Of a stretch of DNA of 64,000 nucleotides, positions 29,714 through 33,572 are shown piece by piece. Each line of letters opens with the position of its first letter. Within the stretch, counting starts at the first letter, position 1. The stretch spans positions 1,600,001 to 1,664,000 of the forward strand of contig CM000151.3 in NCBI GenBank assembly GCA_000004695.1, written 5' to 3'. The notes below the pieces were generated by a model. That model saw nothing but the letters and a program-made list of their open reading frames with translations, was not told the DNA's origin and did not search any database. The DNA comes from Dictyostelium discoideum (taxonomy: Eukaryota). The translations under genes and the position numbers were made by a program.

Positions 29714-30922
29714 ATGCCAATTTCAATTTCATTTAAAAAATCAGAAATATTTATAAATTATCCATTGGTTTATTTGCAAAATGTAGCATATCAACCAAAA
29801 GAAACAGTAATTTATAAAACAGATTATCTTGTAACTAGTGGTTGTAAAGATACACCAAGTGATCATACATGTCCAGGTGCAACAGAAATCAATGGTAAAT
29901 TAATAAGAGATAGTCAAGGATTTTGTTGTAGTTGTTAAATGTCTGATTATATTGATGCTGATCAAAATTCAAGAGCAAATTTAGGTTGTTCACTATTAGG
30001 TTCCCAATCATCATCAGCACACTGTTTATCATTTAGTCCAATGAAATATGATGTTTATAATATTGCCAAAACTCAAGTTGAATATAAAATCACAGCAACA
30101 TTAACCTATAGTTATAATCAAAATCCAATCACTCAAGATATAATTTTATCAAATTCAAATCCAATGGGAATGGATTCATTCAGCCAAGCTATGATTAGAA
30201 TTGTTGGCGATTTTCAATCGTCAACTCAAATTAATCAATTCACTGATAAGAAAGTTGTGTTTCCATATAATCAACCAAATTCAATAAATACTGCTATGTT
30301 GTTAGACCAGAATTTCTTTGATTTGTCAGGGTTAACATGTAATAAAATTGGGGTTTCCTATAGTGCCTTTCAAAATCAACCAAATAAATGTGCAGCTTTA
30401 TTTGGGTCTTGCCTTCAAAATCAAATCGCTGATTATTATAATGCTGATGTCACATTAATTTCAAATGGAAAGAAAGGAAACTATATTGCATCTCAATTTG
30501 GTACAAAAGTTGCAGGTGACCAAAATTCAAGATCATTGAAAATTAGATTCGATGAATCTCATAGAACAATGTTAACAATTACATTGAAAGCTGATTCACT
30601 TCAATATAGAGTTGATATATCACCAGGTAAAATTATAAGTTATCAAATCGATCGATTTGAGTCAATGTCAAAAAATGGTATATTAAGAGTAAAAGTTCAA
30701 AATATTGGTACAATTAATTCAGATTATACATTGGCAATAGTTAATTGTTCAGGTGATATTAATCCTATAGATAGTAAAGATGTAACCATAAAATCAAAGG
30801 AAATTTATAGTTTTGAATTTCAAATTTTTACAACTTCAAAATTAGATTCATCTTATCAATGTTTTGGTGATTTATATAATGAAGTTGCTCAAGTTATCCA
30901 TAGTTGCCCATGCCAAAATTAA
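29714..30922 (+). pseudogene. HAP2/GCS1-like ORF interrupted by an in-frame TAA (29936-29938) and ending at the edge of a foldback element; probable gene fragment/pseudogene
   Basis: Two ORFs (29714..29938 and 29939..30922) lie in the same frame, separated by a single stop: …IRDSQGFCCSC*MSDYIDADQNSRANLGCSLLGSQSSSAHCLSF… The CC-x-C … SAHCL pattern matches my recollection of the HAP2-GCS1 signature domain. No TM helix or tail follows. Confidence 0.45.
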
Positions 30923-31470
30923 TATGGCTGCTGAAATTAATATGGTAATTTTGGCATGGGACTTATGTCTGCTAGAATTACCACATTAATTTCAGCAGCC
31001 ATATTAATTTTGGCATGCACAGACCAACTATTTTAGGCTGAAATTAATATGGCTGCCGAAATTAATATGGTAATTTTGGGCATAGAAAAATAAAAAAAAA
31101 ACTCAAAGTCATTTAATTAATAATAATCATCTCAAATATAAAAGAATTAAAAATAATAAAAAAAAACTCATGGGATTAATTACAGTAACAATACTGATGA
31201 CAAGAATAATTATAAAATAAAAAAAAAAAAAAAATCTTTTTTTATCTTTTTATTTTTATTTCTTATTTATTTTCATGTGTTCAAAAAAAGTGGTGGTTTA
31301 AAACAATTTATTTAATTTTAAACTGTATGATTGTTTAAACAATTTCGAAATAAGTTTCTTTAAAGAAATTCTGTATTTCTTTTTTTTATTTTATTTTATT
31401 TCATTTCATTCTATTTTTTTATTTTTATTTTTTTATTTTTTTTTTTTTTTTTGTATATTTAAGTTATTTA

Positions 31471-31620
31471 TTATTATTATTATTATTATTATTATTATTA
31501 TTATTATTATTATTATTATTATTATTATTATTATTATTATTATTATTATTATTATTATTATTATTATTATTATTATTATATTATTGTTATTATTATTATT
31601 ATTATTATTATTATTAATAT
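31471..31620. repeat. (ATT)n microsatellite, about 50 units
   Basis: Direct observation. Confidence 0.9.
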
Positions 31621-31804
31621 TACTATTATTTAATTGACCGAAGGGATATCTTTTACTTTTTTTTTATATATAATTGTTCGAAACTTTAAAAAATAAAATA
31701 AAAAAAAAAAAATTAAAAAAAAAAATATAAAAAAAAAATTAAAAAAATTAAAAAGTATTTTTTTTTTTTATTTTTTTATTTTTCCACCCGAAGATGTCGC
31801 TTTT

Positions 31805-32206
31805 TTGGAATTTAAAGATGTTGAATTCAATCAAAGTGATGAATTTGGTGTATTATTTAACGAAGTTACTATTGATAAAAATGATTTGAAGTACAAAGTA
31901 AATGTTGAATTTAGAGAGGCGGAGACAAGTAAAAATAAATTGCAAAGGGATATCGAAATAACCAAAAGAAAATCAACAGATGACCTAGTTGAAAAAGCAA
32001 TCGAGCACTCTACCACCGAAGTTAGATCAACACATGAAGCTGCAACAACTTCCAATAATGGTGGAATCACAACTCAATCAAACAAAAACAAAACGGGTAA
32101 AAAAAGAGCTAATCAATTACAATCTGATGCTGATTTTACCAAAAGATTTTCAAACGAAACTTCATCTGTTAGTAACAAAAGAGAAAGTAGAAGAGTCAAT
32201 AATTAA
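31805..32206 (+). CDS. Possible small charged protein (133 aa; Lys/Glu/Thr-rich) inside the foldback element; no ATG at the ORF start (TTG)
   Basis: ORF track only. It is not low-complexity. No homology recognised. Confidence 0.2.
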   Translation: MEFKDVEFNQSDEFGVLFNEVTIDKNDLKYKVNVEFREAETSKNKLQRDIEITKRKSTDDLVEKAIEHSTTEVRSTHEAATTSNNGGITTQSNKNKTGKKRANQLQSDADFTKRFSNETSSVSNKRESRRVNN

Positions 32207-33572
32207 AATAAAAAATTAAAAAAAAAAAATTATTTTAATTTTTTTTTTTTTTTTTTTTTTTTATTTTTAATTTTTTTTTTTATTTTTAATTTTTTTTTAT
32301 TTTTAATTTTTTTTTTTGTGAGCCGTAGACATAAATGAATAATAAAAAAATATATATCAACTAAAAAAAAAAGAAATGAAAATAAATTATAAAATTAATA
32401 ATAAAAACAAAAAGATAAAAATAAATAAAAGATATAAATAAAATAATATGAAAATTTTTTTTTTTTTTTTTTTTATTATTATAATTATTATAATAAAAAT
32501 AATAATAATAAAATTTTGTTTATTTTTGAGATGATTATTAATTAAATGACTTTGACTTTTTTTTTTTTTCTATGCCAAAATTACCATATTAATTTTGGCA
32601 GCTATGTACATGCTGAAATTAATATGGCTGCTGAAATTAATACGGTAATTTTGGCAGACATAAGTCCCATGCCAAAATTAATATGGCTGCTGAAATTAAT
32701 ATGGTAATTTTGGCATGGGACACATAGTATAAGATTAATTTTAATACATCTGAAACTATGATTGATAATGGTCCTCAATCTGGTGAGAATTCATTGGATA
32801 GAGATTCTTTAAATATTGGTTCTCAATTTACTTGTGATGATGTTAGCCCAAATTTGTAAATATATTAAAAAAAAAAAAAAAAAAAAAAAAAAAAAAAAAG
32901 AAAATATTAATTTTAATATTATTCATTTATAATTATTATTTATTTATAGATTAAATATAGTTTGCTATTATGACCAACTAAAAATTTGTAGAACTAAATT
33001 TGCATTGTTTTTAACAGTTCTTGTAGTTATAGTAATAGTTATTATTTTATGTTTTAAATTACCGATTATTAGAAATTTTCTTAGCTAATATTTTGTTGTG
33101 GTTGTTCTTGCTTTAAAAATAAAAAGAAGAAATCACCATCAAGAAAAATAAATCTCAAAAAATAATAACATTAACAAAAAAAAAAAAAAAGAAAAAAAAA
33201 AAAATAAAAAAAAAAAAAAAAAATAACAATTATAATAATAACAATAAAAAATATTCTATTTTTGGAATAACTGATTGGTGTTATTTTTATAATTGTGGTT
33301 ATTCCCCCATTTTTTTTTTTTTTTGATTTGAAATATTTTGATGATTTTCAAAACATAGGGAATTTGTAAATTTGGTTCAGTGGGGTGTAGGTTAAATTTT
33401 TTTTTTTTTTTTTTTTTTTTTTTAATATTTTTTATTTTTTATTATTACTTTTTTTTTTTATTGTATTATTATTTTTTAATTTATATATTGTTATATAGAT
33501 AATTTATATTACCTTTTTTTTTATTGTATTATTATTTTTTTAATTTTATTTTTTTCATTATCCATTAAAAAA

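Follow-up and report, generated by a model that had tools for sequence, protein, structure and literature searches.

The stretch of Dictyostelium discoideum DNA analysed here comprises 64,000 nucleotides of AX4 chromosome 2 (GenBank assembly GCA_000004695.1, contig CM000151.3, positions 1,600,001 to 1,664,000; hereafter the window) and contains a foldback element of 1,818 bp with small-RNA-bearing arms at window positions 30905-32722 (chromosome 2, ~1,630,905-1,632,722). This element is very probably a degenerate thug-S copy; thug-S is an established class II cut-and-paste DNA transposon of D. discoideum and is non-autonomous. The founding description of thug-S is reportedly that of Glöckner et al. 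2001, Genome Res 11:585. Publications already cover the family, the hairpin arms and the microRNAs (miRNAs) derived from them, and the locus itself is found in a published table. The significance of the locus lies mainly in annotation, with several by-products: the base-level anatomy of a copy (termini, target-site duplication and unit orientations), evidence of a sibling family sharing these termini, and an insertion within a HAP2/GCS1-like pseudogene that automated annotation calls a gene.

The D3 small RNA is placed in "the DNA transposon thug-S" by Meier et al. 2016 (PMC4894637), who credit earlier thug-S miRNAs to Avesson et al. 2012. Table 2 of that study gives miRNA_can_D3-5p as UAUGGCUGCUGAAAUUAAUGUGG and miRNA_can_D3-3p as AUUAAUUUCGGCAGCCAUAUU, and both are present without mismatch on the minus strand of the left arm. 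The Northern probe DM227 of the same authors, CCACATTAATTTCAGCAGCCATA, is identical to the plus strand of the window at the D3-5p site. Their S4 Table contains six loci, including chromosome 2 1631003..1630981 and 1631066..1631046 on the minus strand, i.e. the window positions plus 1,600,000, an offset of 25 x 64,000. From the exact matches and the agreement of coordinates we infer that the copy in the window belongs to the published thug-S miRNA loci; it carries the published thug-S small RNAs. It shares with thug-S the organism, a multicopy and dispersed occurrence, long hairpin-forming inverted arms, the lack of a recognisable transposase and thug-S-derived small RNAs. Nothing essential separates the two, except that the window copy is crippled: a base of the left terminus is lost, the start of its open reading frame (ORF) is deleted, and an (ATT)54 repeat is expanded inside it.

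Near-identical relatives of the internal ORF are DDB_G0290953 on AX4 chromosome 5, DDB_G0271172 on chromosome 2 and DDB_G0281529 on chromosome 3, and further relatives occur in two other D. discoideum assemblies. Four loci with such relatives were compared (L002, L003, L004 and L005). L002 (1,980 bp) and L003 (1,564 bp) are full copies with the same arms and termini as the window copy, to which they are 94-96% identical in the ungapped columns of a full-length alignment. L004 is a broken copy with foreign DNA nested inside, and L005 is a related element. With copies on AX4 chromosomes 2, 3 and 5, in two further assemblies and in full length at L002 and L003, the sequence is dispersed and multicopy, as is thug-S. 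In L004, which derives from another isolate, the loop of one thug terminal hairpin is interrupted by ~780 bp that short inverted repeats delimit (ACACAGCAAT...ATTGCTGTGT, positions 4064-4845); this DNA looks like another kind of small element that inserted there. In L002 the thug-S copy is preceded, at a distance of ~930 bp, by a tRNA gene (positions 3061-3134), probably incidentally.

Each end of the element bears an 18-bp terminal inverted repeat, TGTCCCATGCCAAAATTA. The outermost letters are TG(T)CCCATGCCAAAATTA at 30905 and TAATTTTGGCATGGGACA at 32722, with one T missing at the left terminus of the window copy. A perfect 6-bp target-site duplication, CATAGT, borders the element on both flanks, and the predicted pre-insertion (empty) site on chromosome 2 is written as ...ATCCATAGTATAAG.... 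The element had originally been predicted at 30905-32728; it is present there, but its proper end is 32722, the last 6 bp being the target-site duplication. Perfect 6-bp duplications are found in four of the four elements with both ends (CATAGT, ATTAAC, CATATT and, in L005, TTTGGT), each with a chance probability of ~1e-3. Terminal inverted repeats of 18 bp together with a duplication of fixed length in four elements are characters of class II transposons, and because four independent insertions each possess their own perfect duplication, the element family is a cut-and-paste transposon and not a local palindrome.

Within the window the 50-nt terminal hairpin has exactly two occurrences, where 0 would be expected by chance, and a 22-nt hairpin core occurs six times, always within the element. 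The hairpin unit is therefore absent elsewhere in the 64 kb, yet it recurs at other loci and is not unique in the genome. Its confinement to the element within the window, and the position of the element inside a gene-like region, would suit a palindrome or cruciform that arose on the spot and never moved, or an atypical intron belonging to the HAP2-like gene. Such an origin is nevertheless extremely improbable, since the same element is found with other flanks and other duplications at further loci and chromosomes, and since its boundaries are TG...CA with a duplication rather than GT...AG. A unique cruciform was accordingly rejected on the existence of further copies, and an intron of the HAP2 gene on the TG...CA termini of the inverted repeats and the target-site duplication, which take the place of splice sites.

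The predicted architecture of a 1.8-kb foldback element with inverted terminal arms was confirmed by arm alignment against shuffled and random controls. In a local alignment the left arm at 30907-31148 pairs with the reverse complement of 32512-32719 at a score of 194, with 184 positions matched and 20 mismatched. For shuffled sequences the score is 23 on average and 36 at most, and the best of 174 random pairs from the window scores 94, so the inverted repeats do not fall below significance. The arms measure ~242 nt (left) and ~208 nt (right) and are 90% identical. They had been described as mutual reverse complements, which holds for the aligned parts but not for a 26-nt gap, where half of the third unit (C) is absent from the right arm.

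Both arms are assembled from units of ~56-60 nt, namely A, B and C in the left arm and a half-unit C', B' and A' in the right arm. B' and A' form tandem direct repeats with a period of 59 nt. For the small palindrome predicted as the building block, the loop of 24 nt is correct, but the stem comprises 15-17 bp instead of 13. Variants of a single 15-nt motif of near-palindromic sequence, CCAAAATTAATATGG, make up the entire arm; they lie in both orientations and are predicted subterminal transposase-binding repeats. In Drosophila, foldback (FB) elements likewise end in long inverted repeats that are composites of short subrepeats, as are the thug-S arms. They differ, however, in their subrepeats, size and duplication length (6 bp in the thug-S copy), and are not known to be related in sequence to thug-S.

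Folded as DNA, the outer hairpins reach z = -4.2 and -6.8, and unit A alone reaches -15.2 kcal/mol. Units B and C, folded singly as DNA, are no better than shuffles. The A+B segment of 120 nt folds as DNA with -46.7 kcal/mol (z = -13.6), and RNA folds of 30900-31095 reach -87.0 kcal/mol on the plus strand and -83.9 kcal/mol on the minus strand (z = -12 and -11), in agreement with the hairpin folding that had been proposed. The favoured fold of the left arm is one near-perfect hairpin of ~50 bp between A and B, and not two small ones, because A and B are oppositely oriented. The right arm, whose units B' and A' share one orientation, yields shorter hairpins only: A' folds on its own, and the half-unit C' is the pairing partner of B'.

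The A:B hairpin of the left arm is the mir-7131 precursor. Rfam model RF03716 matches it with 93.8 bits on the plus strand and 93.1 bits on the minus strand (gathering score 74) over model positions 1-84, i.e. over the whole model, and this is the sole Rfam match in the window. We take mir-7131 to be a D. discoideum family of miRBase; a literature search by the name "mir-7131" found nothing. As in the window, the match is restricted to the left arm in L002 and L003, and the model gave no match when searched on L004 and L005. The right arm is without a match because its outer two units are direct and not inverted repeats, and the unit orientations thus account for only one arm being a miRNA precursor. 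The likeness to mir-7131/miRNA_can_D3 hence consists in the fit of the left arm to all 84 positions and in the two exact mature sequences; the difference is the right arm of the window copy, which does not match. A transcript of either strand would fold via A:B into a near-perfect mir-7131 precursor of ~50 bp. Transposon arms serve as Dicer substrates also in other transposon-derived miRNA genes, such as MADE1/mir-548 and the miRNAs of plant miniature inverted-repeat transposable elements (MITEs), which are not known to be related in sequence to the thug-S arms. According to the literature, the thug-S hairpin is processed into miRNA_can_D3 by the Dicer DrnB and its partner RbdB.

Several points weigh against the assignment as given. 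The published 5p and 3p labels fit no single hairpin at the window locus: the exact 3p (with CGG) corresponds to unit C at 31046-31066, which on the minus strand precedes the 5p, whereas the mir-7131 fold pairs the 5p with unit A (30921-30941), whose sequence (with CAG) is one base off the published 3p. The sites in A and C are near-identical, so unit B, of which the window copy has a locus-specific GUGG variant, can pair with either of them. The name thug-S follows the assignment of Meier et al. and the coordinate match, not a comparison with thug-S and thug-T consensus sequences, and the source of the transposase, what the 15-nt motif does and whether the window copy is active are matters of conjecture.

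The element might accordingly be thug-like but not thug-S, i.e. thug-T or an unnamed sibling, with the label of Meier et al. used loosely. In favour of this are the naming without the original consensus sequences and the 18-bp termini and 6-bp duplication that at least two related families have in common, as seen in L005 (positions 3452-5188), which has symmetric arms, an ORF of 56% identity and no mir-7131 match. This explanation is nonetheless quite improbable, as the published thug-S miRNA loci include the exact window position, and as the window copy groups with L002 and L003 at the identity stated above and not with L005. The sibling element in L005 may be thug-T.

The loops of the hairpin units had been predicted to occur in both orientations in different subunits, and they do so. 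On the plus strand the asymmetric 24-nt loop has the "flop" orientation in B, and all of A, C, B' and A' have "flip". A (30907-30962) and A' (at 32666-32721) are identical in 56 of 56 positions as a direct repeat, so that the loop nearest the ends runs against the inverted symmetry of the arms; B and B' are true inverted copies. Flip-flop inversion as a process, in contrast, found no support. The window copy, L002 and L003 all show the pattern A flip, B flop, C flip, B' flip, A' flip, and L004 has the same orientations at its right end; an opposite loop orientation at the same end was present in none of these three full copies and one partial copy, a small sample. Because the pattern is identical in all copies examined, the flip is an inherited trait of the family consensus. 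The flipped loops thus represent inherited family architecture, with no evidence of ongoing flip-flop within this small sample.

A ~130-bp internal segment of thug-S (window 31148-31276, L003 5292-5422) is inverted in L003 relative to the window and L002, in a minus-strand match of 87% identity (E = 2e-41), and the family therefore does undergo internal inversions. This inversion, and the outer unit in direct orientation at both ends with one loop inverted relative to the inverted arms, would be compatible with active loop flipping, either because the 15-bp stems recombine or allow template switching, or via hairpin-primed replication like that of parvovirus terminal repeats, which would maintain both orientations of each end in the population. 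Such a process is highly improbable given the same orientation at every unit in the three full copies and the right end of L004, and given the 6-bp duplications, which indicate ordinary cut-and-paste integration.

The flip/flop hairpins of parvoviruses and adeno-associated virus (AAV) resemble the thug-S arms in an asymmetric loop between palindromic stems and in both orientations occurring within one molecule. There, however, hairpin transfer produces both orientations at a given end across genomes, whereas in all thug-S copies examined the orientation is fixed per position and integration leaves a target-site duplication. Parvovirus-like flip-flop was rejected because the loop orientations are fixed, and an invertible-segment switch because the orientation of the ORF relative to the mir-7131 arm is constant in all copies. 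A residual curiosity is that the fixed asymmetry of the terminal loops confines the long Dicer-substrate hairpin to one arm, the one upstream of the ORF. It is conceivable, if rather unlikely, that this asymmetry is selected, giving each thug-S exactly one Dicer substrate whose miRNAs regulate family transcripts or host targets; the symmetric-arm sibling family of L005 would then be without the single-substrate feature.

The interior of the element contains, as predicted, a small ORF (31784-32206) and an (ATT)50-type repeat, here measured at 54.7 copies. According to the full-length alignment the microsatellite is shorter in L002 and absent in L003. Relative to L003, the ATG and the first ~14 codons of the ORF are deleted in the window. 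The ORF of L003 is fuller (MIYSKNNKSNKKYPPEDIAFLEFKDVEFNQSDEFG...RRVNN, ~154 aa) and has one internal stop; the ORF of L002 possesses a different 5' part and, at 178 aa, is the longest of any copy. The C-terminal motif QLQSDA-FTKRFSNE...RRVNN is kept even in the divergent family. A Pfam search of the element ORFs revealed no credible family, and structure prediction gave no confident fold (mean predicted local distance difference test, pLDDT, 46.9); the encoded protein of ~150 aa is probably disordered.

No transposase is recognisable among the ORFs of the element (up to 178 aa) by Pfam or structure prediction, and the element is therefore non-autonomous and must be mobilised in trans. Thug elements make up ~0.1% of the genome, and the proteins of Dictyostelium DNA transposons resemble no known transposase (review PMC5633606). 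Of the original candidate classification as a MITE or thug-type non-autonomous element, the thug type and the lack of autonomy stand, given the multiple copies, the duplications and the D3 RNAs. The element is not a strict MITE (<~800 bp, no coding capacity), as copies measure 1,564-1,980 bp and contain an ORF conserved between subfamilies. Insertion into the coding remnant of the HAP2/GCS1-like pseudogene duplicated the 6-bp target CATAGT. In the proposed model of transposition, a transposase supplied in trans would bind the 15-nt motifs behind the 18-bp termini.

The HAP2/GCS1-like pseudogene continues downstream of the element at 32729-32858, with a possible further exon near 32960-33090. 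The left terminus of the element supplies the last five codons and the stop of the HAP2-like ORF at 29939-30922, which agrees with the original prediction. In-frame TAA codons are located at 29696-29698 and 29936-29938, the second immediately after the conserved GFCCSC. The closest named relative is Tieghemostelium HAP2 (36% identity); the tblastn alignment begins at residue 78 of this protein, the N-terminal part being missing. The search returned no AX4 protein for the pseudogene, which therefore seems distinct from hgrA and hgrB. When the element and one copy of the duplication are deleted, the downstream coding-like frame is still shifted by one base. Restoration of the frame by removal of the element was rejected on this shift and the two upstream in-frame stops, on which grounds the loss of the HAP2-like gene was not due to the insertion alone.

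The automated annotation of GCA_054883475.1 calls the pseudogene a gene by splicing around the stop, which removes the conserved GFCCSC region. The same annotation contains a 126-aa "gene" starting at an ATG inside hairpin A, and AX4 models such as DDB_G0290953 (MAAEINMVILAWDLY...) do likewise. Gene models that start in hairpin A explain why the literature places the miRNA in a thug-S "intron".

Table 1. Features of the thug-S copy and its insertion site, in window coordinates.
Feature	Position	Strand	Basis
HAP2/GCS1-like pseudogene, part upstream of the insertion	29699..30904	+	Pfam PF10699, E = 4e-78; tblastn
Target-site duplication, left copy, CATAGT	30899..30904		same letters as 32723-32728
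thug-S DNA transposon copy (very probable)	30905..32722	+ (by ORF direction)	full-length alignment with L002/L003; literature assignment
Left composite inverted-repeat arm: A, B, C and A-rich subterminal segment	30907..31148		local alignment with reverse-complemented right arm
Unit A, terminal hairpin, 15-17-bp stem, 24-nt loop, "flip"	30907..30962		repeat match, DNA fold
mir-7131 microRNA precursor, A:B hairpin	30921..31007	both strands	Rfam RF03716
Unit B, loop "flop", pairs with unit A (~50-bp hairpin)	30963..31024		RNA and DNA folds
miRNA_can_D3-5p, exact match	30981..31003	-	PMC4894637 Table 2, S4 Table
Unit C, loop "flip", degenerate stem	31030..31087		motif match, fold
miRNA_can_D3-3p/star, exact match	31046..31066	-	PMC4894637 Table 2, S4 Table
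(ATT)n / (ATT/TTA)n microsatellite	31468-31630		54.7 copies of 3-nt unit
5'-truncated remnant of small thug ORF	31784..32206	+	homologues DDB_G0290953, DDB_G0271172, DDB_G0281529; alignments
Right composite arm: half-unit C' 32566-32606, B' 32607-32663, A' 32664-32722	32512..32722		alignment, folds
Target-site duplication, right copy, CATAGT	32723..32728		same letters as 30899-30904

The HAP2 pseudogene is flanked by paralogous FG-repeat (nucleoporin-like) ORFs in the same orientation, at window positions 26510-28966 and 33867-36602, with similar N-termini (M.PRKPSFPADLERFKNQ... and MKKPEFPRDLELYKNQ...). Window positions 10001-16000 possess a G+C content of 0.32-0.41, unusually high for the genome, with a strong negative GC skew and a strong positive AT skew.

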